From contig NZ_CP006867.1 in assembly GCF_001481685.1 (NCBI RefSeq), positions 810,001 to 842,000 of the forward strand: a stretch of DNA of 32,000 nucleotides, written 5' to 3'. The stretch is from Ignicoccus islandicus DSM 13165. GTDB taxonomy: Archaea; Thermoproteota; Thermoprotei_A; Sulfolobales; Ignicoccaceae. The notes beneath the pieces were generated by a model that had not been told where the DNA came from, did not search any database, and saw only the letters and a list, made by a program, of their open reading frames with translations. Position 1 is the first letter of the stretch, and every line of letters begins with the position of its first letter. The translations under genes and the position numbers were made by a program. Below are positions 14,459-30,497 of this stretch, one piece after another.

Positions 14459-14532
14459 TGGGCCCGGGGGGATTCGAACCCCCGACCACCCGGTTATCAG
14501 CCGGGCGCTCTGCCGGGCTGAGCTACGGGCCC
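14459..14532 (-). tRNA. tRNA-Ile (anticodon GAU)
   Basis: I folded the cloverleaf by hand. The acceptor stem is GGGCCCG/CGGGCCC and the D stem GCTC/GAGC. The anticodon stem is CCCGG/CCGGG with loop CTGATAA. The T arm is GGGGG-TTCGAAT-CCCCC and the discriminator is A. There is no intron and no encoded CCA. Confidence 0.95.
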
Positions 14533-19372: not shown

Positions 19373-20506
19373 TCAGCTATTCCTCAAATGTACCATACTC
19401 TTCCACAGTGAGTATGATGAGAGCACGTTCATAAGGGCAGAGAAAGCGAACACCCAACCTCCTCCAAGACCTATTCCCTCGAGGTAAGTATATAGGAATG
19501 ACCCTACTAGGGGCCCTATCGCGTTGCCTAGACCGAACATCGTTTGCCTGAAACCGAAGTGCTTCACGGAGGCCCCCATTTCGCCTTGAGCTGCTTTGGA
19601 TATCGATACCGAAGTTGAAGCGCCTAACCTACTGAGCATCAACAAGAGCACCAGTGCAACGTAATCCCTAGTGAAGCCTATCAGGGAGGTGCTTATTGCT
19701 TGTATGAACTTAAGTTGAGAACTGAGGAGGAGCTTCTTCTCAATGCTTAAGAAGTCGGTCTTCCTGGCTATTAGGTATGAGACGAATAGAACCGTGTAAC
19801 CCGGAATTGCCATTGCAATTGAATACATTTTGGGAGATGCCGTAACGTATTGGATAATGTAAGTAGGTAAGACGGAAACCCTCATTCCGAGGGCTATACC
19901 GCTGAAGAGGGCACTTAGGTAGAGGTATTTCATGGCGCTCGAAGTCGAACCCCTACCTTTATAGACGTTTAAATTGACGAGCAGAGGTAAGCTAGCAAGC
20001 GCTATCAGAGCTGAAACGCCGAATGGGATCCTAACGCTAGCTGGATGCGTTGGTAATATTAGGAACCCTCCCATTAAGTTTCCGGTAGAGAACCCCAAGT
20101 TCGAAAACAAGTTCAGTAAAGCTAAGTTCGAGGACTTCCTATCACTTTTCGCTATACTGTACTCTATGTGGGGCCAGATGAGCCCTAGCGAGGAACCTTG
20201 GAGTATCCTAAAGATTAGTAACTGGGGAACGCTCGTTGAGAACGCCATGCCAATTAGCGATATCAATAACGTTAGAGACGCTATAGATGGCCTCGAGAGG
20301 TGCGAAAGGGAAGAAGCAACCGTTCTACTAAGCATGAATGCAGTCGATAGAGCCCCTAAGTCAATAGCGACCAATTGCGCGGGCAACGTTTTGGAAGGGG
20401 CTAGGATTCCCTTTAGGTATAACAACATGTAGGGCAAACTAACTGAGACGACGGACGAGCTTAGCGATAGCGCGAACGCTAATGCTATTCCCTTCCATTG
20501 GTTCAT
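19373..20506 (-). CDS. MFS-type membrane transporter
   Basis: The 377-aa protein is hydrophobic with multiple TM segments in an MFS-like arrangement. It is not closely similar to the other two MFS ORFs. Confidence 0.7.
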   Translation of the reverse strand: MNQWKGIALAFALSLSSSVVSVSLPYMLLYLKGILAPSKTLPAQLVAIDLGALSTAFMLSRTVASSLSHLSRPSIASLTLLISLIGMAFSTSVPQLLIFRILQGSSLGLIWPHIEYSIAKSDRKSSNLALLNLFSNLGFSTGNLMGGFLILPTHPASVRIPFGVSALIALASLPLLVNLNVYKGRGSTSSAMKYLYLSALFSGIALGMRVSVLPTYIIQYVTASPKMYSIAMAIPGYTVLFVSYLIARKTDFLSIEKKLLLSSQLKFIQAISTSLIGFTRDYVALVLLLMLSRLGASTSVSISKAAQGEMGASVKHFGFRQTMFGLGNAIGPLVGSFLYTYLEGIGLGGGWVFAFSALMNVLSSYSLWKSMVHLRNS

Positions 20507-20618
20507 CAGTCATCAATTGCGCTGGTATACCTCACAGTTAATTAGATGCGATAGTGCGATTAGAGCGAGGTTTTGAAAAGAAGGTCTTCGATAATCTAGT
20601 TATTGAGTAAAAGAGGAG

Positions 20619-22073
20619 TTAGGTGAAGACCACTTTCCTAACTTTCTTGTATGCAGCTACTTTGCTGTTTACGAAGTTCATTATCTCTTCTTCGCTCACC
20701 TTACCTTTGCATTCTTCCTTTAGTTTGACCTTCGCAACCGGTATTTGGCCGACGTCGCCGGCCGGTTCTCCCTCTACCGTGACTTCCTCTACACACGGGT
20801 GTTTCTGGAGTATTAACTCTAGATCCCTAGGGAATATGGGATAACCTTTGTATTTCAACATCCTCTTTCTAACTCCTTTGAAGTAATAGAATCCTTCCGA
20901 GTCTCTCGAGAGTATATCTCCGGTCCTCAACCACTTCTTTCCATCTACCACAACGAAGGCCTTCTCGTTCTCTTGAGGATCGGGATAACCCTTCATTACT
21001 TGCGGTCCTCTCACTAATAACTCTCCTTGATCCTCAACTTTCTGCAACGTATCCGGATCTACTAGCAACGCCTCTACGCCGGGCAAGGGGAACCCCAAGC
21101 TCCCAATCTTGTGCTTCTGCGGAGTGGTGGCGAATATCTGAGGAGCTTCGGTCATTCCATATACTTGAAGGAGAGGCTTCCCAGTAAGCTCCTCCCACTT
21201 CTGCTGGTCTTGGGGCGGTAGGTAAGCGCCGCCGCTCATTGACCACTTAAGGCTCCTACCAAGCTCCTTCACGAAACCTTCGTCTTCCTTCATCAACGTT
21301 TGGAATACCAAAGGTACAGCTACTACGTACGTGGACGGGAACTTCCTCGATAACTCCTTTATCTTGTCAATGTTAAATCTCTTTAATAGAATTGCTGTTC
21401 CGCCGCTCACGAGCGCGGTCATTAAGGCTGCGTCCAAACCCAGTACGTGGGTCAATGGAATAGTAACTAGGCTCACGTCGCTCCCTTCAATCCCCTCAGC
21501 TTGAACTAAGGGCATTATCGCGCCAGTGAACGACCTATGGGTGTGTATTACTTGCATGGTCCTTCCAGCTATTCCAGCATAATAGAATATTCTCGCATCG
21601 TCCTCGTAATTCACTTCTACTTCGTGTGAACCGGAAGCGTTCTTGAGGTCCTCTTCGTTCACCACTGGGTAATTACTAAGCGTGGCTCCTTCTCTTTCTA
21701 TAACTTCCTTATCGGCAATTACTACCTTCGGTTTCGAGTCCTCGAGTTGCATCTCCAGGTCTTCCTTCTGCGTTAAAGCGTCTACTATGACTACTCTAGC
21801 CCCAGCGTAGAGGCTACCCAGCAAAGCGGTTACGAATTCGGGTCGGTTAAACATTATTAGGAAGGTAGTATCTCCCTTGTTCACTCCGTTTTCCTTCAAT
21901 AAGGACGCAACCGCCTTACTTTTGTCTATTAGCTCCTTATACGTCATTTGAGTACCATCTTCGTACACCAGCGCTACTTTTTCTGGTTCGGCGTTGGCAG
22001 CTTTTTCTATTAATTTATGAACAGGTAATCCGGGGTCCTTGTATTCCATGGCTCTTCGAGCATTCTGAGACAT
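20619..22073 (-). CDS. AMP-dependent acyl-CoA synthetase/ligase (ANL superfamily)
   Basis: AMP-binding signatures are present: YYAGIAGRTMQV (a degenerate P-loop-like motif), YGMTE, TGD and the C-terminal KGYPIFPRDLE. The ORF opens at GTG 22127. ATG 22073 is preferred because the duplicated fragment at 26370-26665 keeps this ATG and homology ends about 15 nt upstream of it. Confidence 0.88.
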   Translation of the reverse strand: MSQNARRAMEYKDPGLPVHKLIEKAANAEPEKVALVYEDGTQMTYKELIDKSKAVASLLKENGVNKGDTTFLIMFNRPEFVTALLGSLYAGARVVIVDALTQKEDLEMQLEDSKPKVVIADKEVIEREGATLSNYPVVNEEDLKNASGSHEVEVNYEDDARIFYYAGIAGRTMQVIHTHRSFTGAIMPLVQAEGIEGSDVSLVTIPLTHVLGLDAALMTALVSGGTAILLKRFNIDKIKELSRKFPSTYVVAVPLVFQTLMKEDEGFVKELGRSLKWSMSGGAYLPPQDQQKWEELTGKPLLQVYGMTEAPQIFATTPQKHKIGSLGFPLPGVEALLVDPDTLQKVEDQGELLVRGPQVMKGYPDPQENEKAFVVVDGKKWLRTGDILSRDSEGFYYFKGVRKRMLKYKGYPIFPRDLELILQKHPCVEEVTVEGEPAGDVGQIPVAKVKLKEECKGKVSEEEIMNFVNSKVAAYKKVRKVVFT

Positions 22074-22204
22074 ATGCGATATATATCTTCGTATAGCGTC
22101 GCGTTCGTATTGCCTTTCCTCTCGCACGAAAAGAGGAATGCCTCGAGGATATCAAATGGTGAGCACTTTGATATCAAGTCTGTTAAGGAATGGTAGTAGC
22201 GGTT

Positions 22205-22252
22205 TGGAGCGCCGCCGGGATTCGAACCCGGGACCTCCGCCTTACCAGGGCG
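22205..22252 (-). repeat. Orphan 3' half of tRNA-Thr (attL-like direct repeat)
   Basis: Positions 22211-22252 are identical to 27175-27216 (42 bp). TGGAGC at 22205-22210 matches 27168-27173 with a 1-nt deletion relative to the intact gene. No tRNA 5' half follows. Confidence 0.9.
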
Positions 22253-22337
22253 AAGTCATAGCTAATAGGATCCTTACCTTTTACTTGCTAGGTTGTTTGT
22301 TGACGCAATCTGATTATTTTACTAAAGCTGTTATATT

Positions 22338-23612
22338 TTGGTAACGAAGGTGTTCACAGTGGCACTTGAAGTGTCGTTTAGACAGTTGGTGAAAAGCGTC
22401 CCGTCTACCACATATGCCACACACGGTCTTTACATGCATCCTGCTAAATTCATCCCACACGTCGTTAGATTCGCGCTAGAGAAATATTCCAAAGAGGGCG
22501 ATACTGTTTTCGATCCCTTCGCCGGACACGGGACGGTTGGTATTGAAGCGAAGATTCTGAACAGAAACGCAGTTCTCTGGGATCTAAACCCTATGTCTAG
22601 GGTTTTAGCTCTAGCATCAATGTATGACGGCGAGCTTAGGAAGAGCGATTTCATCTTAAAGGACGATTCTGGTTGCGAATTTGTTCCTAGTTGGAGCAAC
22701 ATTGATTATTGGTATCCTGAGGAATTCTTAAACTATTTGAGTAAACTGTGGGGCTTTTGGCACTATAATATATACGAAAGATACAAAGATAGGAACCTTG
22801 AGGCTAAGGCCTTCGTTCTGTCTATACCTCTCTTCAAAATTACGAGGTACTTCAGTTGGGCTGATGAAAAAATCGCTAAAACATATCGATCAAAGTATGC
22901 TAAAAGGAAAGTTGAAAGCTTATTGAAAGGAAATTGGAAAGCCGTGCTCTGGAATATGTACTGGAAAAACGTTAATGTGGTAATTAGGAAAGTATCCGAG
23001 TTCAAAAGGTATCGCCCGCATAAGATCGATGTGGTAATTAAGACCAGTTGGAAGAATAACGACAAACTTGCAATATTTGATAGTATTGTAAACAAGGTGG
23101 ATAGGCACATTGACTTACTAATAACTTCACCACCTTATCTGCAAGCACAAGAGTACATTAGGAGTTTTAAGCTCGAACTCGCCTGGCTCGGATACAATGA
23201 TAGGGATCTCAGAGAGTTATCGTCCAGGGAAATACCGTATAACAATCCTCCAGAGACAAATATCCGAAGCAACACTTACTGGAGCGTGAGAGAAATAATA
23301 GAGGGTTATAATAATAAGAAGTTATTGAAACTCTACGACGCATACTTCAAGTCCATCTTGGGCTTCTTTGAGAGAAACCAGGACGTGGTCGATACTATGG
23401 CAATATTCGTTGGGCCGGTAAAGGTTAGGACTTTGCGCGTTCCAATTGATGAGATAATCCGGGAGCATATGGAGGCTCACGGATGGAGACATGTAGCCAC
23501 ATATATTGATACAATAAAGTCGAGAAGGTTGTTTGAATCCAGAATTAACCCCGCTACTGGTATACTGGACGAGAGGACGCCTACCGAGCATTTATTGGTT
23601 ATTACCAAATAA
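22338..23612 (+). CDS. Site-specific DNA methyltransferase (N4-cytosine or N6-adenine; SPPY motif IV)
   Basis: The AdoMet motif I region reads HPAKFIPHVVRFALEKYSKEGDTVFDPFAGHGTVGIEA (FDPFAGHGT encoded at 22509-22535). The catalytic motif IV, LLITSPPY, is encoded at 23127-23138. About 190 aa separate the two motifs (motif I, putative TRD, motif IV order). The start is uncertain: TTG 22338, GTG 22350 or ATG 22434. Confidence 0.85.
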   Translation: MVTKVFTVALEVSFRQLVKSVPSTTYATHGLYMHPAKFIPHVVRFALEKYSKEGDTVFDPFAGHGTVGIEAKILNRNAVLWDLNPMSRVLALASMYDGELRKSDFILKDDSGCEFVPSWSNIDYWYPEEFLNYLSKLWGFWHYNIYERYKDRNLEAKAFVLSIPLFKITRYFSWADEKIAKTYRSKYAKRKVESLLKGNWKAVLWNMYWKNVNVVIRKVSEFKRYRPHKIDVVIKTSWKNNDKLAIFDSIVNKVDRHIDLLITSPPYLQAQEYIRSFKLELAWLGYNDRDLRELSSREIPYNNPPETNIRSNTYWSVREIIEGYNNKKLLKLYDAYFKSILGFFERNQDVVDTMAIFVGPVKVRTLRVPIDEIIREHMEAHGWRHVATYIDTIKSRRLFESRINPATGILDERTPTEHLLVITK

Positions 23613-23620
23613 AGGAAGGT

Positions 23621-24979
23621 ATGAAGAGGGTTAGTATAATGTCTAGGCCATTGCTGTTGCTTTATATAACTCCCCAAAACTTGTTCAAGACGAACAAGAT
23701 ATTAGAGATGCAATGGTCTGCAACTAAAACACTAACTCCATGTATAATGAAAATATTATATGAAGGAGACATTGATAAACGCCTTCATATATTCGATGAA
23801 ATATTTACTGGACTCAAGAATCTAGAAGACATAGATGAGAATGATGTGTTAGGTAGAGTATCTATTTCTTGGTATTATATCACAAAGCTCCTTCATCAGT
23901 CAATAGGACCTAGACTCGGGAAATTTACAGAGAAGATAATCCAACATTGGATCAATACTAATGGTATCTTTGAGGTATTAGGCACTGACGTCCCTTTGGG
24001 ATCAATTCTTCGTGAATACTTCAAAGTAAGATATAATTCTCGGAAAAAGATTGATTTTGTAATTCGTAGGAGATCTAATATGAGCTATAAGAAGGAATGG
24101 AACTTCATAGAATTAAGAACTAGTGAGCATACTGGGGGGAGAACAGCTCAGTTATCCTTATTGGATAAGTTCAATGATCTACTACGCCTTTTAGAGATAG
24201 ATGGGTACTATACCAAGATAATCAATGTTGCCGAGTCGATCTATATGGATATTGCAATATTATTTTCGGAGCAACATGAACTTTTAAATAATTATAACTT
24301 TAGTAAGGGACGCCTAAGTTCTCTGATAAGTTACATTGTACAAGAGGATCAAATTTTGGGAAAAGTTGAAAAGCTTCTTAACAAAGGATTCGAGCTATTT
24401 GACAAATATTGTAAGGAACATGTAGATCGCGAATCCTTACAAACGGTACTTAATAAGGAGAGAGGATTCTGCTTAAAAGACGGCAAGATCAGTATCATTT
24501 TTAGAATACTGTTTGGAGACGAGTTTTTTAGATATTATACTGGCAAAACCATAAATCAACTTCTTAGTGAGGATCGGAATATAGCTGACGATCTTTGGTT
24601 CTATTTTGGCATTGTTCTAAACGAGTTAAAAGTCGCCAAAGTGTTTGGTAGAACAAATGTAAGGCTTATTTACGATATAATAAAAGAAAATGATATGGCT
24701 AAATCATTTAAAGACATTTATAATATTTGTACGGGCAAGCATAGTTCTCAATGTTCATTAGAGAAATATGTTCGTGAGGTAAATGATATTGTGCAACAGC
24801 TTGCGATTGGCCTATTGAATCACCTAGAACAAAAGAATCTTCCTCTAAGATTACTTGAGACGAACGATCATGTGAAAAATTGGATATATTTGAAAAGATT
24901 AGTCTATGCATCTCTCTCGTTGTATTTAACAAGGGATTTAGTGGGCGATACACACTTCAAACAATGTAAATGGAGTTAA
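23621..24979 (+). CDS. Uncharacterised 452-aa protein; candidate restriction endonuclease or defence effector partnered with the methyltransferase
   Basis: The ORF is intact and starts 8 bp after the methyltransferase stop, preceded by AGGAAGGT (SD-like). It is very AT-rich. It contains no Walker A motif or other motif I recognise. A possible PD-(D/E)xK-like arrangement is E104 ... D145 (KIDFV) ... E164-L-R166 (FIELR). Confidence 0.7.
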   Translation: MKRVSIMSRPLLLLYITPQNLFKTNKILEMQWSATKTLTPCIMKILYEGDIDKRLHIFDEIFTGLKNLEDIDENDVLGRVSISWYYITKLLHQSIGPRLGKFTEKIIQHWINTNGIFEVLGTDVPLGSILREYFKVRYNSRKKIDFVIRRRSNMSYKKEWNFIELRTSEHTGGRTAQLSLLDKFNDLLRLLEIDGYYTKIINVAESIYMDIAILFSEQHELLNNYNFSKGRLSSLISYIVQEDQILGKVEKLLNKGFELFDKYCKEHVDRESLQTVLNKERGFCLKDGKISIIFRILFGDEFFRYYTGKTINQLLSEDRNIADDLWFYFGIVLNELKVAKVFGRTNVRLIYDIIKENDMAKSFKDIYNICTGKHSSQCSLEKYVREVNDIVQQLAIGLLNHLEQKNLPLRLLETNDHVKNWIYLKRLVYASLSLYLTRDLVGDTHFKQCKWS

Positions 24980-26369
24980 TACATGACTAATAAAAATAGG
25001 GATTCTATGATTATAAAGATTTCTATTTTAGTAGACATAAATTTAGTAGGGGTAGAAAGTTGGGTCTTTGTATTGAGATGAAGAGGTAAGTGTGTCCATT
25101 CATCTGGTGTTTAGACGCTATAATATATAAGAATACATAAGACACTCACACTACCAAGATAGTTAGTTTGTTTAGTACCATTGAGAATGTTTTTGCTGAC
25201 TTCTATCCAAGCTTGTACTTGTATTATCTTGGAGAAGATACAAGACCTTTAGAATACGAGTTACATCCTAGTACTAAGCTTCTTGTTAGGAGAATTCTTG
25301 AGACTTATAGAATAACTCAAGTTAAGTGGGAAAATATTACTGGAGTACATTGGTTTTGGAGTTTGAATACTCTCCGCTTGGGGAGCCGATTGTGTCAGTA
25401 AGCATATTCGTATACAATGGTCCATTTGAAGGTGCTGATATAGAGGTTAACGTCCTACTATGGATTTATGATAATCAAGTTATCGAATCTCTCGAATCAT
25501 CTTTAGTATCATTTTGGGTTATCCAACTTTAGATATGCTTTTGAGAAAAGTGGAGAGATATAAATAGATCTAAGATAAGGGTTTCTTGATTGAAAAGCCA
25601 TTAGCAATTATCCAGAAGCTTTATCCGATATTTTGCGACTAGCCAAGATGGCTTGACTCCCTAATAAACAAAAATACTTTCTTATATTAGATACGATTAG
25701 TAGCCCGAAACCTCTGATAGGCGAATTTCACAGTTATACGATCATTATAGTCCTTATAGGAAAGATATTTTGGTGAACATGATTGTTGGAGAAAAAGGAT
25801 ATGAGGTTTATCTTCGGCCAAAGGGATAAAAGAAGTTGCGGAGATAATTATGGGAAATAGTGTTATATTGAAACCTTTAAAGGGTGATAATACATTGGAG
25901 GATGCATTTAACTCGATGGTTGAGGACATATTGTGGCCTTATGTAATGAAAGCTTTAAAGAATACTCGTACTCTGATAAGAGCTACTACAGAGCACTTCT
26001 TTGTCGAGTAGATGAATAAATTGGTCTCATCTAGGAAATAGATATACAAGTTTGGAACCATGCATTTTACTTCAACCTTCATCTTGCCTAAGTCGTTAAC
26101 AAGCTGACACCAAGGATCACCTTTGAGTTTTCTATGTTTTTATTCCTCTTTTCCTCTTACACTTCTTTGCTTTCGATTTTGAGATTACAATAAAAATAGG
26201 CATATATCTTTCAATGTACCTCATAGAACTTTATCGCAAAAATCATTTAGTTGTAGCAATGATGCCGAGAGGTTTGATGGTCTTATTTCTACTACGATCC
26301 ACTAATAGGACTTCCGGTGTCAGACACGATCAAGATAATTTATGTCATTACCCCCTTTCATATCGGAGC

Positions 26370-26665
26370 CTAGCGCCAGCGTAGAGGCTACCGAGTAAGG
26401 CGGTTACGAACTCGGGTCTGCTGAACAATTATTAGAAACGTGGTGTCCCCTTTATTTACCCATTTCTCTCTAAGTAACAAGACCGCTGCCTTACTCTTCT
26501 CAATTAGCTCCTTATACGTCATCTGAGTACCGTCTTCGTACACCAGCGCTACTTTTTCTGGTTGGGCGTTGGCAGCTTTTTCTATTAATTTATGAACAGG
26601 TAATCCGGGGTCCTTGTATTCCATGGCTCTTCGAGCATTCTGAGACATATGCGATATATATTTTC
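26370..26665 (-). pseudogene. Truncated, frameshifted duplicate of the 5' end of the acyl-CoA synthetase gene
   Basis: This segment aligns with 21796-22090. The start-proximal part of about 190 bp differs at only a few positions. The distal part of about 100 bp is much more diverged, and its frame is broken (FLIIVQQTRVRNRLTR versus FLIMFNRPEFVTALLGS). Confidence 0.85.
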
Positions 26666-27167
26666 ACGTAGCTCAGCTCCCCATTACCTTACCCCACTCG
26701 ATTCCAAGGACTCAAAGGTTCCCAAACCGCTTTGCTTTCAAAACACTGAAAGTTCGAAGGCGTCCTCGGAAGAAACACTCGAATCTAGCTTAAAGGGTCT
26801 TTGAGCCTCGCGAATACCGTCGGTCAGGAAACCTTTTTATTAGGACGTGATGATGGAGGGCTTAATTAGACCGTCTTGGATGTTAAGAACCGTTAACGGA
26901 ACGACTCGAGGGTGAATGGTAACCGAGGTCATTACTAAAGAGGTAGGGTGGCAGGAGAATCAGAAGAGAGAGCATATTTCATTAATTAACACGTTGGGGT
27001 CCCATTATCTCCCGCTGCCTTCGTGAGTAGCTTTGAGGTCTTACGTGTATCTTTGAGTTTTCGGCTTCCCTTGACCTCGAAATTTGAACTTCTAGCGAAG
27101 TAATTCGCTACCCTTGCCGAGCTTATTTTCGGATAGATAAAGCCGGAGGTGGGGGAGCTTGTTTAGG

Positions 27168-27216
27168 TGGAGCCGCCGCCGGGATTCGAACCCGGGACCT
27201 CCGCCTTACCAGGGCG
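27168..27216 (-). repeat. attR-like direct repeat inside the intact tRNA-Thr gene
   Basis: This is the partner of 22205-22252. It spans the CCA end, the acceptor 3' strand, the T arm, the variable loop, the anticodon loop and part of the anticodon stem. Confidence 0.9.
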
Positions 27217-27244
27217 GCGCTCCACCAGGCTGAGCTACGGCGGC
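27168..27244 (-). tRNA. tRNA-Thr (anticodon GGU), CCA encoded
   Basis: I folded the cloverleaf by hand. The acceptor stem is GCCGCCG/CGGCGGC and the D stem GCTC/GAGC. The anticodon stem is CCGCC/GGCGG with loop CTGGTAA. The T arm is CCGGG-TTCGAAT-CCCGG. The discriminator is U, followed by CCA. Confidence 0.95.
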
Positions 27245-27271
27245 GCGCTCAAGGAATTCGACCCCACGTCC

Positions 27272-27280
27272 ATTTAAAAA
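27272..27280 (-). promoter_or_regulatory. Candidate TATA box for tRNA-Thr
   Basis: The minus-sense sequence TTTTTAAAT is centred about 32 nt upstream of the tRNA 5' end. It has the same box type and spacing as at tRNA-Ile. Confidence 0.45.
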
Positions 27281-27402
27281 CGTTTTGATTGCGTGTGAAG
27301 TAGGTGATGAGGAACCGTGTTTCAGCCGAACGGTGAAGAAGTCGGTCGTGCACCGAGCTTTCAAAATAACCTCTCCAGGTTGTGTGACGGGACGTAAAGA
27401 CC

Positions 27403-28512
27403 ATGAGGAAAGGTTTGTTGGTAGTAACCTTCTTAGGCGTAGTAGCCGGCATGACCCTCAGAACTGCCAGTGCCTTCAAAGAGGTTCAAAGCGGTTGGAC
27501 CTTCATGGCGAGCTTAGCGATAGGATTTTCCGTAGGTAGAGCATTAGTTTCTTTCGTATCTAGTAAGGCCGCTAATAAGTATGGAAGTAAAGTAACCGCG
27601 TTGGGATTCCTCGCCCTAGCTTTCATTGGCCTAGCCTATGCCTTAGGTCCGGTCGAACTCTATCCATTACTTAGGGTACTTCACGGATTCTCCTCGGGCA
27701 TAACTTGGCCGTCTATGCAATCCGTAGTTATGGGTACAGCTAGTAAAGAGGAGCGCGCCAAGGTTTCCTCGCTGTACTTCTTCATTGGTACTATAGGTAT
27801 GAGCTTCGCCTATCTAATAGGAGGTGTCCTTAGTAGGGAATCGCTCCTAGTCTTTCCGTTAATACTTATAGGTCTATCAATATATCTATTTAGGGAATCT
27901 ATAAAAATAGAATTATCTAAGATCAAATCGGAAAAAGGCCTATTCAACCCACCTTCTTCGACGCTTTTCCTTATGGCAATGGCAACGGGTATGCTCAACT
28001 TGTTGGTCAATAGCGAAGTAACCATCTCCCTACTTTACTTAATGTTCGGCAAGATCATGGCTGGAATCTTCTTGTCGTTGGCTTCCGCCATAGGTAGCGT
28101 TGTAAGTTACTTCCTAGGACGTAAGATGTTGGATCTCAAGCAATCCCCAGCTTCAATTGTAGTACCGGCCACTGCATCAATAGCTTCTTCCCAACCTCTA
28201 TTAATAGTCCATGACCCATACGCGAAAGTTGCGTCGATAGCCCTTACTCAAGGAACGATAACTTGGTGGAGGGGCTTACTCGTGGCAGCCGCGAGGAGCG
28301 GTGACGTCGGCGCTAGGATAGGCCTAGTTAACATGGGAAGGGACTTGGGCAACGTAATTGCTGGCTTAATAGTAAGCGCGATCGGTCAGCCAGGCTTCGC
28401 GTTCGCTCTAGGCGTTAGCTACGTAGTTACGACCCTTTCAATGGTTCCCCTACTTTCCTTAAAACGGTCCAACAATTCTCGATCAAGTTATATAAATCTG
28501 CAAGATGCATGA
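27403..28512 (+). CDS. MFS-type membrane transporter (paralog of 1912-3009)
   Basis: The 369-aa hydrophobic protein is collinear with the 365-aa ORF at 1912, with many identical blocks. Its stop overlaps the ATG at 28509 (ATGA). Confidence 0.8.
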   Translation: MRKGLLVVTFLGVVAGMTLRTASAFKEVQSGWTFMASLAIGFSVGRALVSFVSSKAANKYGSKVTALGFLALAFIGLAYALGPVELYPLLRVLHGFSSGITWPSMQSVVMGTASKEERAKVSSLYFFIGTIGMSFAYLIGGVLSRESLLVFPLILIGLSIYLFRESIKIELSKIKSEKGLFNPPSSTLFLMAMATGMLNLLVNSEVTISLLYLMFGKIMAGIFLSLASAIGSVVSYFLGRKMLDLKQSPASIVVPATASIASSQPLLIVHDPYAKVASIALTQGTITWWRGLLVAAARSGDVGARIGLVNMGRDLGNVIAGLIVSAIGQPGFAFALGVSYVVTTLSMVPLLSLKRSNNSRSSYINLQDA

Positions 28513-30497
28513 GATCTGGAGAGTGTACCATGGGACTAAAGGCAGCGCTTTTTCCAGACAGAATGTATAAAGTGCGAGCAATGGTCATTAAAGAGAAAGC
28601 TGACAAGCTAGTTGAACTGCTAGGCGAACTCCAAAGCTTCGAACCCGCCGAACCCAAGGTACCTTTCGGCAGACCCATTGAATGGGCGCGCCACGATTTG
28701 CTCGTAATCTTGGACCATTTGAACAAGTTCGAGCAATACCTAGAGTACTTCGAACTCAGCATCTTCCCCGAACCCGAGCAAGTATACAAGTTCAAGAGCT
28801 GGAAGGAGGCTTCCGAGGAAGCTATTAGAAAGGCTAAGGAAGTGGAAAAGGAGTTCGAAGAGAGATTAAGTAAGATTAAAGAAATAGAAGGCAAGATCTT
28901 CGAACTCAGCGCGCTCCTAAGCAAGCCCCAGTTGGTACCGGGCGAGGCCGTGAAGAAGTTAAAGGAAATAGTAGGCGATATGGTAGTTGAGAGACTCCCC
29001 GCGGAATTACAGACGGACTTAGTGGTCCTAGACGCTACTGCCAAGGAACTCTTGAAATTAACAGAGGAATTCGTGAGGAAGCTCGCTCTCAAGCTAATGA
29101 AGGTGCTCGAAGAGGAGAAGAGAGGGATTTTCGAAGAAGCCAGGCTTTGGGCTTTGGACAACGAAGGCAAGATCGCCGATACCTACGCTCTGTTGAAAAC
29201 CGTTGAATCCTCATTAAAGGTGCTATCTAAAGCTAGAGAAACGGAGTACGTTATCTATATAGAGGGATACGTTCCCGAAAGTAAAGTAGCTAGGACCTTG
29301 AGGAGAATCGAGGAGCTAATAGGCGAGGGAGGCTTCGCATTAGTACACCAAGTCGACCTAGACGAAGAAACCCCTCCGACTTACGTCAACATCGAGAACG
29401 ATAAAGTTGAAACTGCACTAAAGGTAGGTAACATATACGGTGCCCCCCATCCCAATGAGTTCGTACCAGCTGTAATAATGGCCTTTACTTTGCCGTTCAT
29501 TTACATGTTCATGTTCCCGGACTGGGGTCACGCGTTAGTTTTGTACCTCTTCGGCTGGGGCCTGATTAATAGGAGAGAATGGGCTCTAGCGGTCTTTAAG
29601 CCCTTCGGCTTGAGGAGATTTACCGAAGGCACTGATTTCCTAGGTAAACTAATGATCATACTCGGAAGCGCGTCTATAATTACTGGTTGGCTTGCCGGCG
29701 AGTTCTTCGGGCCTCTAATAGGAGAGAGCCCCATAGATCCAGCTATATGGCTCTGGAAGGGATTAGGTCTACACTCCCCACCGCTCACTTTCGAGATACA
29801 CTACTTGGGCGACACCGTACTCAAGTACGTACTGCTGAGCATAACTATTGGTTACTTCCATCTACTAATAGGTCACCTAATAGGAATAATCAACGAACTT
29901 AGGTTCGGTAGAAAGTGGAAGGCGTACCATTACGTACTACCGTTCATGATAATGTACTTGGCAGCTGGAGCCCCCTTCGTTGCTGGCTTCTTCGCCAGCG
30001 GACTCGGTAGCGACATCGAGCAAATGATGTACTTAAGCGGTAAGTTCTTCAGCGAATGGATGTTTGACATGAAGGCAGGGACCATAGGGCCTCTGCTAGT
30101 AGTCTTCATCCTTGCTCTACTATGGAGAGGATACGGTATTCACTTAGAGCTCGTTCACGAGCACGGAAAGAGCGAAGCGTCGATACTCGGTATGGAGCTG
30201 TTCGATAACTTCCTGCTAGTAATCAGTAACACAGTGTCTTACCTCAGGATTATGGCGCTCGCACTGGCGCACTGGGGTCTAGTCTTCGCCTTCCAAGTAA
30301 TCGGTGAGATAGGAGGTCCAGTGCTCCTAGCAATACTATACGTGCTCGCTAACATACTAGTAATAATGTTAGAAGGCCTGATAAGCTTCATCCACGACAT
30401 AAGGCTTCACTTCTACGAATGGTTCACTAAGTTCTATAATGACAGAGGGAGGATGTTCGAACCAGTTAAACAAGTAGCTAGAGTAAGAATAGAGTAA
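28509..30497 (+). CDS. atpI: A/V-type ATP synthase subunit I (membrane stator/proton channel subunit a)
   Basis: The N-terminal half of about 300 aa is a soluble coiled-coil region beginning PDRMYKVRAMV. The C-terminal half has multiple TM helices with the conserved LRLHFYEWF / SYLRIMALALAH region, which contains the essential Arg context. An alternative start is ATG 28530. Confidence 0.9.
   Translation: MRSGECTMGLKAALFPDRMYKVRAMVIKEKADKLVELLGELQSFEPAEPKVPFGRPIEWARHDLLVILDHLNKFEQYLEYFELSIFPEPEQVYKFKSWKEASEEAIRKAKEVEKEFEERLSKIKEIEGKIFELSALLSKPQLVPGEAVKKLKEIVGDMVVERLPAELQTDLVVLDATAKELLKLTEEFVRKLALKLMKVLEEEKRGIFEEARLWALDNEGKIADTYALLKTVESSLKVLSKARETEYVIYIEGYVPESKVARTLRRIEELIGEGGFALVHQVDLDEETPPTYVNIENDKVETALKVGNIYGAPHPNEFVPAVIMAFTLPFIYMFMFPDWGHALVLYLFGWGLINRREWALAVFKPFGLRRFTEGTDFLGKLMIILGSASIITGWLAGEFFGPLIGESPIDPAIWLWKGLGLHSPPLTFEIHYLGDTVLKYVLLSITIGYFHLLIGHLIGIINELRFGRKWKAYHYVLPFMIMYLAAGAPFVAGFFASGLGSDIEQMMYLSGKFFSEWMFDMKAGTIGPLLVVFILALLWRGYGIHLELVHEHGKSEASILGMELFDNFLLVISNTVSYLRIMALALAHWGLVFAFQVIGEIGGPVLLAILYVLANILVIMLEGLISFIHDIRLHFYEWFTKFYNDRGRMFEPVKQVARVRIE

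Follow-up and report, generated by a model that had tools for sequence, protein, structure and literature searches.

Known tRNA-bounded elements and the Ignicoccus islandicus locus

Crenarchaeota are well known to harbour integrated elements bounded by tRNA sequences, as well as decayed remnants of them. The "gene capture" of archaeal SSV-type elements, which integrate in tRNA genes by means of a partitioning integrase, and the decayed remnants of such elements were reportedly described by She and co-workers. The lambda gal and bio specialised-transducing derivatives result from imprecise prophage excision. In bacteria, units that associate restriction-modification (R-M) genes and an integrase are found in tRNA genes, while R-M "insertion with long target duplication" (Nobusato/Furuta) occurs in Helicobacter and other bacteria (Furuta et al. 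2010, PMC2853133). The same survey lists no archaeal case with an empty site (PMC2853133). The locus analysed here is a putative R-M island located between a ligase gene and a tRNA-Thr gene of Ignicoccus islandicus DSM 13165. It occupies positions 22205-27216 of the window, a term used below for the whole 32,000-nucleotide stretch that was analysed (contig NZ_CP006867.1, positions 810,001 to 842,000). A literature search on mobile elements found no description of any for I. islandicus and nothing specific for Ignicoccus.

The order of the components is ligase gene, short spacer, orphan tRNA 3' part, R-M core, ligase fragment, a spacer of ~500 nt and the intact tRNA gene. The explanation held here, with confidence only somewhat better than even, is that the island derives, as a remnant, from an integrative element targeting tRNA genes which carried a type II R-M operon and the flank of a former host, acquired by imprecise excision. 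The evidence for this origin comes from the tRNA-derived repeat, from the foreign composition of the core that abuts it, and from a second repeat made of a diverged allele of the neighbouring ligase gene.

The tRNA-Thr repeat and the foreign core

The attachment site (att) copies that delimit the island are:

27168-27244, minus strand: intact tRNA-Thr(GGU) gene with encoded CCA, found by ARAGORN (as GGT) and by Rfam (69.3 bits); the proximal att copy is 27168-27216
22205-22252, minus strand: orphan tRNA-Thr 3' part, the distal att copy, corresponding to tRNA positions 29-77 but lacking 1 nt of the acceptor strand

The repeat search and the reading of the sequence identified an exact direct repeat of 43 nt (22210-22252 and 27174-27216), one base longer than the 42 given in the original prediction. 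The similarity extends to positions 22205 and 27168 through TGGAG(C), yielding the predicted 48 nt if one indel is allowed. The indel is a 1-nt deletion in the left copy, which reads TGGAGC-GCCGCC where the right copy reads TGGAGCCGCCGCC. An exact 43-mer repeat is expected by chance about 7e-18 times in 32 kb (32000^2/2 x 4^-43). Within the tRNA, the repeat begins at position 29, in the 5' strand of the anticodon stem, and includes the encoded CCA, exactly at which homology ends on the outer side. The left copy gives a partial tRNA match of 23.2 bits, under the Rfam gathering score, and an Rfam scan of 20000-29000 detected nothing beyond tRNA-Thr and this orphan part. The assignment of the right copy to an intact gene and of the left copy to an orphan 3' half was thus borne out. 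Tyrosine-recombinase att sites typically have such a footprint, which begins in the anticodon stem and reaches the 3' end of the tRNA. The element is bounded, as SSV-type elements are, by direct repeats of tRNA 3' origin, and the foreign DNA found between them agrees with the site-specific integration that had been proposed from the sequence.

Note that the window has a second tRNA gene, coding tRNA-Ile(GAU) (14459-14532, minus strand); within 20000-29000, the region searched, its 3' part is not seen to be repeated.

The DNA enclosed by the two att copies is heterogeneous. Its core, 22253-26369 (4117 nt), has a G+C content of 36.7%, compared to 46.9-50.3% across 375 flank windows of equal length. 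The tetranucleotide distance is ~0.42 in island windows and 0.12-0.17 elsewhere, approximately threefold above background. The two non-coding parts of the core are:

22253-22358, plus strand: element arm beside att, 106 nt with 34% G+C, containing TTATATTTT
24980-26369, no strand assigned: AT-rich segment of 1.39 kb with short open reading frames (ORFs) only, 34.7% G+C, with a sharp end at CTAG and the ligase fragment beyond

Low G+C starts at the first base past the orphan att, which argues that the R-M core and att are one piece of DNA. The gap between core and flanks amounts to 11 points and displays no amelioration. The last 798 nt within the repeats (26370-27167) are host-like, with 45.2% G+C in 26370-26672 and 46.9% in 26673-27167. 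The claim that the whole interval is AT-richer than its surroundings therefore holds for the core, where the tetranucleotide deviation reinforces it, but not for these last 798 nt (45-47% G+C). No homology was found for 24980-26369 by six-frame comparison to Pfam, by comparison of its short ORFs to Pfam, NCBIfam and PHROGs, by tblastx to the fetched loci or by blastn to phages; this segment presumably stems from the element and has decayed. The island has only trivial tandem repeats. The core terminates at the junction 26369/26370, positioned at a CTAG palindrome (…CGGAGC / CTAGCGCC…), where ligase homology starts exactly and abruptly.

The ligase gene and a second ligase fragment

A second direct repeat of ~300 nt (21796-22097 and 26370-26672), overlooked in the original prediction, was detected by the repeat search. 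It involves the ligase gene of the left flank and the DNA next to the intact tRNA gene:

20619-22049, minus strand: full-length acyl-CoA ligase gene (AMP-binding) in the left flank, Pfam AMP-binding 2.9e-69, conserved MEYKDPG start at 22049
21796-22092, minus strand: left copy of the ligase repeat, inside the functional gene, with a TATA-like box, the start and the first ~85-93 codons
26370-26667, minus strand: ligase pseudogene fragment, a second allele, with a TATA-like box, the start and ~93 codons, and a 1-nt insertion (frameshift) near 26427/26428
22093-22204, no strand assigned: short left spacer, from the end of the ligase repeat to the orphan tRNA part, of which 77 nt lie past the start of the mechanical ORF
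26668-27167, no strand assigned: right spacer of ~500 nt, 46.9% G+C, with no ORF and no Rfam match

The ligase is 100% identical to an annotated 476-aa I. islandicus protein (P0001). Its mechanical ORF runs to a GTG at 22127, whereas MEYKDPG (22049) is the start in the deposited annotation and in all homologues. The longer mechanical ORF encloses a TATATATA box at ~22079-22086. Both box and start are included in the duplicated fragment, which may thus still be transcribed.

Similarity within the ligase repeat is mosaic. Over the 161 nt that begin ~45 nt upstream of the start and end at codon 48, the copies differ at 4 positions (97.5% identical), while codons 49-93 show 35 differences in 135 nt (74% identical; Fisher p = 1.7e-8 for the contrast between the tracts). 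In the divergent tract the differences are distributed 3:5:27 over codon positions 1:2:3 (chi-square p = 2.5e-7), with 20 synonymous and 9 non-synonymous codon changes. Neutral decay in place would strike all codon positions equally, and the observed pattern is that expected if both copies diverged as working genes. The residues KGDTT and VTALLGS are found, among the sequences compared, only in the fragment and in the I. islandicus gene. Over codons 49-93 the fragment is 74% identical to the resident gene at the nucleotide level, compared to 66-71% for the relatives. Judged by these substitutions, the fragment is a piece of a once-functional sister allele from another lineage, and the 97.5% identical tract suggests that the ligase copies exchanged sequence at a later time. 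A simple insertion of foreign DNA between ligase and tRNA, as originally proposed, accounts for the core but not for the 0.8 kb proximal to the tRNA, composed of a diverged, frameshifted ligase copy and the ~500-nt spacer.

Two long direct repeats around an R-M pair recall the insertions with long target duplication mentioned above. According to such a scheme, the R-M genes would have inserted in situ and duplicated a target of ~460 nt that comprises the ligase 5' end, the spacer and the tRNA 3' part. Endonuclease and methylase alone in a short insert, long direct repeats and the lack of a mobility gene fit the description in PMC2853133. The spacers are, however, unrelated and differ in length (~110 and ~500 nt), the 3:5:27 pattern is impossible for a duplicate that decayed in place, and the repeat includes a tRNA att, which is a sign of site-specific recombination in the same study. 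In situ duplication is thus scarcely credible. In particular, the spacers and the codon-position pattern rule against the repeats being two copies of one target duplicated at insertion.

Unitigs of the same strain in Logan (L001, L002 and L005; runs ERR9765744-ERR9765779, at least 10 samples) break off within the two repeats, the tRNA-derived one and that of the ligase, showing that both are branch points in assembly graphs. Three paralogous MFS transporter genes are present in the 32 kb (1933-2900, 19373-20506 and 27403-28512), two of which flank the ligase/tRNA-Thr locus. The paralogue near 1933-2900 was detected only by tblastx similarity to MFS2 relatives.

The restriction-modification operon

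The coding part of the core consists of two genes:

22359-23612, plus strand: putative DNA amino-methyltransferase (MTase), GTG start, motifs I (FDPFAGHG) and IV (SPPY) in this order
23621-24979, plus strand: putative type II restriction endonuclease of 452 aa (EYM_04765, annotated hypothetical), starting 8 nt past the MTase stop

The protein coded by the first gene matches Pfam N6_N4_Mtase PF01555 (1.2e-12) and, over its full length, phrog_18146 (4.4e-80). Its S-adenosylmethionine-binding and (S/D)PPY motifs identify it as a predicted type II MTase. It is 47% identical, over the full length, to the methylase of viruses STSV1/STSV2 annotated as "PspGI-like cytosine methylase", and 54% identical to an MTase encoded in a Sulfolobales metagenome-assembled genome (MAG; contig L012, see below). 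A search of IMG/VR yielded STSV-like viruses and distant matches only. The sequence TTATATTTT at 22331-22339, ~25 nt upstream of the GTG, suggests an archaeal TATA box and a leaderless transcript of the two genes.

The endonuclease has no match in Pfam, NCBIfam or PHROGs, and its profile has no meaningful match among PDB sequences. Its 83 homologues, the best of them 44% identical, are found in Sulfolobales, Desulfurococcales, Euryarchaeota and Thermotoga. One homologue, from Thermotoga, bears the name "DpnII-family"; the DpnII profile PF04556 gave weak matches in 2 of 24 homologues (best E 0.0017) and no match to the window protein. An AlphaFold2 model built on 24 homologues has a mean predicted local distance difference test score (pLDDT) of 91.2. 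Its top fold match in the PDB is EcoO109I (probability 1.00, E 2.5e-3, template modelling score 0.48-0.51 on the target), followed by BstEII, BbvCI, PfoI, Bse634I and BamHI, which are all type II restriction endonucleases. The match is moderate; it supports the type II endonuclease fold class for the modelled protein, though not a specificity. The family has invariant residues D145 and E164-x-R166 on adjacent predicted strands, which may be read as a PD-(D/E)XK-like site, and a SEHTGG(R/K)T motif. Since its members are mostly annotated as hypothetical, without a Pfam model besides the weak DpnII matches, this appears to be an uncurated family of type II restriction endonucleases. The family counts ~80 archaeal and bacterial members, and the endonuclease of the window is a candidate for a new thermostable type II enzyme.

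Linkage of the two genes is observed elsewhere. Intact pairs are present in L012 and in metagenome contig L013, and the endonuclease gene lies downstream of a fragmented MTase gene in metagenome contigs L009-L011. Endonuclease homologues always adjoin an MTase homologue, supporting a methylase-endonuclease unit in the window. The contigs L009-L011 (L009:2300-4299) carry the closest endonuclease homologue (43% identical), preceded only by MTase pieces (tblastn, residues 222-279 and 322-409), and look like cases of an endonuclease beside a broken cognate methylase. A second, full-length MTase homologue is encoded 3 kb downstream in L009 (6127-7320). In the window both ORFs are intact and 8 nt apart. 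As read from sequence and model together, the cargo is a putative type II R-M operon with the methylase gene first, in accordance with the prediction that it would be non-housekeeping. Analysis of palindrome avoidance over 27 kb of host DNA, aimed at the recognition site, gave no signal.

The original prediction had also called for a search of virus and plasmid collections. The MTase does match STSV1/STSV2, but no endonuclease homologue was found in phages, plasmids or IMG/VR.

The missing integrase

The original prediction that the island lacks an integrase, or a split int(N)/int(C) gene, withstood a six-frame Pfam search, tblastn and frame reading. Six-frame translation of 24960-27170 with stops masked and compared to Pfam (E<=10) detected only the ligase fragment and no integrase family. 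The tblastn search of the whole window with the SSV-type integrase of L012 returned only tRNA-derived matches (tRNA-Ile, tRNA-Thr and the orphan part). The L012 integrase ORF reads through its own att (...RPGFEPGASRLQ..., PPGFEPG... frame). In the window the same frame (PPGFEPGTSALPG) meets a stop 4 codons past the left att and a TAG immediately before the right att, and the minus-strand frames out of the right att are closed within ~25 codons. No Int(N) or Int(C) fragment was found in any frame across both att copies, where stops occur within a few codons. No tyrosine-recombinase domain was identified, and neither the MTase nor the 452-aa endonuclease is a recombinase. As neither an SSV-type nor a pNOB8-type integrase is seen, the island can be named only as a remnant or a trans-mobilised derivative of such elements.

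The L012 locus (L012:5731-9361; Sulfolobales MAG GCA_038831135.1, JAWBKW010000021.1) is informative in this respect. Its MTase (54% identity) and endonuclease (42%, tblastn) genes are found beside an ORF of 329 codons with integrase domain PF16795, which shows that the R-M cassette family travels on SSV-type elements. The amino-terminal part of the integrase ORF reads through ~65 nt that resemble, by eye, the 3' part of tRNA-Ala(UGC) (TGGTGGACCGGCCGGGATTTGAACCCGG...); a complete tRNA was not found in this att region by ARAGORN or Rfam. Upstream are several small ORFs in a row, as is typical for an integrated element. A search of IMG/VR with a 36-nt att pattern found nothing.

The locus in relatives

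Homologues of the ligase that are 78-83% identical are encoded in Desulfurococcales/Ignicoccus-like MAGs. With one genome per species, the search retrieved only two Desulfurococcales MAGs at 80% identity and no tRNA nearby, and a search of Joint Genome Institute metagenomes gave a 27% identical paralogue only. No tRNA gene was found upstream of the ligase gene within 2-10 kb in loci L003, L004 and L008, nor in the 449 nt available in L007. In L007 the ligase, MFS and PEP synthase genes have the same orientation, but ~5 kb of additional genes separate the ligase gene from MFS. The conservation of ligase, MFS and PEP synthase in this locus indicates that the ligase flank is native to the neighbourhood. 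On the other side, L015 (from the same MAG as L007) has the order PGK-MFS2-AtpI without a tRNA, L016 (I. hospitalis) has PCNA-AtpI, and the contig of the closest relative (L014) begins inside MFS2. The MAG GCA_054020855.1 encodes an AtpI of 88% identity. Among the contigs retrieved through homologues of the ligase (L007, L008) or of AtpI (L014-L016), none joins the ligase gene to tRNA-Thr or tRNA-Thr to MFS2. Synteny at the locus is not conserved in the available relatives. An empty site in which the ligase gene is directly followed by tRNA-Thr, the arrangement that the prediction had put forward as a check, was not encountered in any of them. Neither spacer is similar to the relatives' loci. 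The methylase and endonuclease genes are not present in any of 7 Ignicoccus/Desulfurococcales relative loci; their nearest homologues (43-54% identity) are those of L012, L009-L011 and L013. This absence makes the island specific to I. islandicus among the sampled genomes.

The lack of an empty-site genome among available relatives would also be compatible with no insertion at all: the low-G+C segment would be old resident DNA and the tRNA-half repeat the leftover of a different, lost element. The lack of signal in palindrome avoidance in host DNA goes in the same direction. An old resident segment is nevertheless highly unlikely considering that low G+C begins at the very first base past the orphan att, that the 11-point gap persists without amelioration while both R-M ORFs are intact, and that the two genes are absent from the relatives' loci with nearest homologues only 43-54% identical.

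Origin of the island

The sequence shows the two repeats, the foreign composition of the core, an R-M pair as cargo, no integrase, and a ligase fragment that derives from a once-functional foreign allele. The order of events, the imprecise excision and the catalyst of integration are inferred. The att of the incoming element, spanning the anticodon stem to CCA, would have recombined with the chromosomal tRNA-Thr(GGU) gene, so that the tRNA was rebuilt at one end and the original 3' part was displaced to the far end, beside the ligase gene. The incoming DNA would have lacked an integrase and would have carried, beside att, ~0.8 kb of the flank of its former host, a different Ignicoccus lineage: the ligase promoter, ~93 codons and ~500 nt of intergenic DNA. 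The right spacer is accordingly proposed to be the donor's ligase-tRNA intergenic region. Such DNA could arise by an imprecise excision similar to that of lambda gal from the same locus in the donor, in which the flank of one side was taken and the integrase end was left behind. Integrases usually lie at the end of an element opposite to the captured flank. A circle formed by ligase fragment, spacer, att and R-M core that integrates at the tRNA would give, from its geometry, the observed order. Integration would have required an integrase acting in trans or recombination through the 48-bp tRNA identity. Afterwards, the ligase copies would have exchanged their first ~160 nt and the fragment would have gained its frameshift. 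This scheme accounts for the canonical limits of the att copies, for the abrupt start of low G+C at att, for the lack of an integrase and for the presence of foreign ligase sequence.

Several points weigh against this origin. A donor with a ligase gene ~500 nt from tRNA-Thr is hypothetical: neither an empty site nor a donor arrangement was found, the ligase gene of the relatives is not beside a tRNA, and their MFS2/AtpI side is without tRNA-Thr (L015, L016). The ~500-nt spacer matches nothing, and its origin in a donor flank is an assumption. The 97.5% identical tract demands an additional gene-conversion step. The window holds no integrase to act in trans, and no virus, plasmid or viral contig was found with this att or with the endonuclease.

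The same two blocks of homology, the ligase 5' end and the tRNA 3' part, which have the same order and orientation on either side of the core, raise the possibility of an integrase-independent entry by homologous or homology-facilitated illegitimate recombination, from related Ignicoccus DNA that already had the R-M island at its ligase/tRNA-Thr locus. The DNA may have been a circle recombining in the Campbell style, or a linear fragment with one homologous end and an illegitimate join at CTAG 26369/26370, and the tRNA-half repeat would go back to an event that had taken place earlier in the donor. According to one version of this scenario, the right ligase fragment and the ~500-nt spacer are native while the start of the full-length ligase gene and the short spacer are imported. 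The 161-nt tract with 4 differences abutting a 74% identical tract (Fisher p = 1.7e-8) is a recombination signature, the junction at 26370 is abrupt and no integrase was found, all as expected from such an entry. A simple crossover, however, would not render the copies identical on one of its sides, such that gene conversion is needed here too, and DNA of 74% identity is a poor substrate for homologous recombination. Furthermore, the repeat limits are those of a canonical att and call for a site-specific event somewhere in its history, and no donor genome is known. Entry driven by homology is the main rival explanation, possible though less likely than not.

A bolder scheme, to which little probability is attributed, considers the R-M cassette as a self-sufficient, integrase-free mobile unit among Ignicoccus lineages, that re-inserts at the same locus by host recombination with portable homology arms. 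If so, the two arms would be the tRNA 3' part and, at the opposite side, a stretch of a conserved neighbour gene. Re-insertion might be aided by DNA breaks from the cassette's own endonuclease, the inner junction being located at a CTAG palindrome. The 160-nt ligase tract, nearly identical in both copies, would be the scar left by recombination at entry.

Comparison with known systems

The element remnant favoured here shares features with each of the systems introduced above. As in SSV-type elements, a repeat of the tRNA from anticodon stem to 3' end bounds AT-richer foreign DNA beside an intact tRNA gene, and the element is trapped and decaying as their remnants are. The link is strengthened by L012, whose homologous methylase-endonuclease pair adjoins an SSV-type integrase with a tRNA-derived att. 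The window differs from SSV-type elements in having no Int(N) or Int(C) at its att copies and no detected integrase domain, and from L012 in gene order relative to att. The MTase belongs to the same PHROG family as that of STSV1/STSV2 (47% identity), but the viral MTase is solitary, without an endonuclease homologue, and the rest of the island is not similar to these viruses.

The resemblance to lambda gal/bio lies in the host flank present beside att on the element and in the missing genes of the opposite, presumed integrase end. Differently from lambda, no phage is seen for the window element, and its donor arrangement is hypothetical. The resemblance to the bacterial units of PMC2853133 consists of a short insert with R-M genes only, direct repeats longer than 30 bp, one of them tRNA-derived, and R-M genes as mobile cargo. 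The window has no detected integrase, and its long repeat is partly a diverged allele from another lineage and not a duplicate made on the spot.

With this locus Ignicoccus, a genus of deep-sea hyperthermophiles, is shown to have acquired a defence system horizontally. The captured ligase allele is direct sequence evidence that DNA of another Ignicoccus lineage entered the chromosome at this position, and it also shows that the resident ligase gene and the fragment later recombined. The understanding of tRNA-bounded elements is left unchanged: compared to these systems, the locus is a mobile element of an ordinary kind that has decayed, and what is informative about it is its scar, formed by a captured foreign flank and a trace of recombination.

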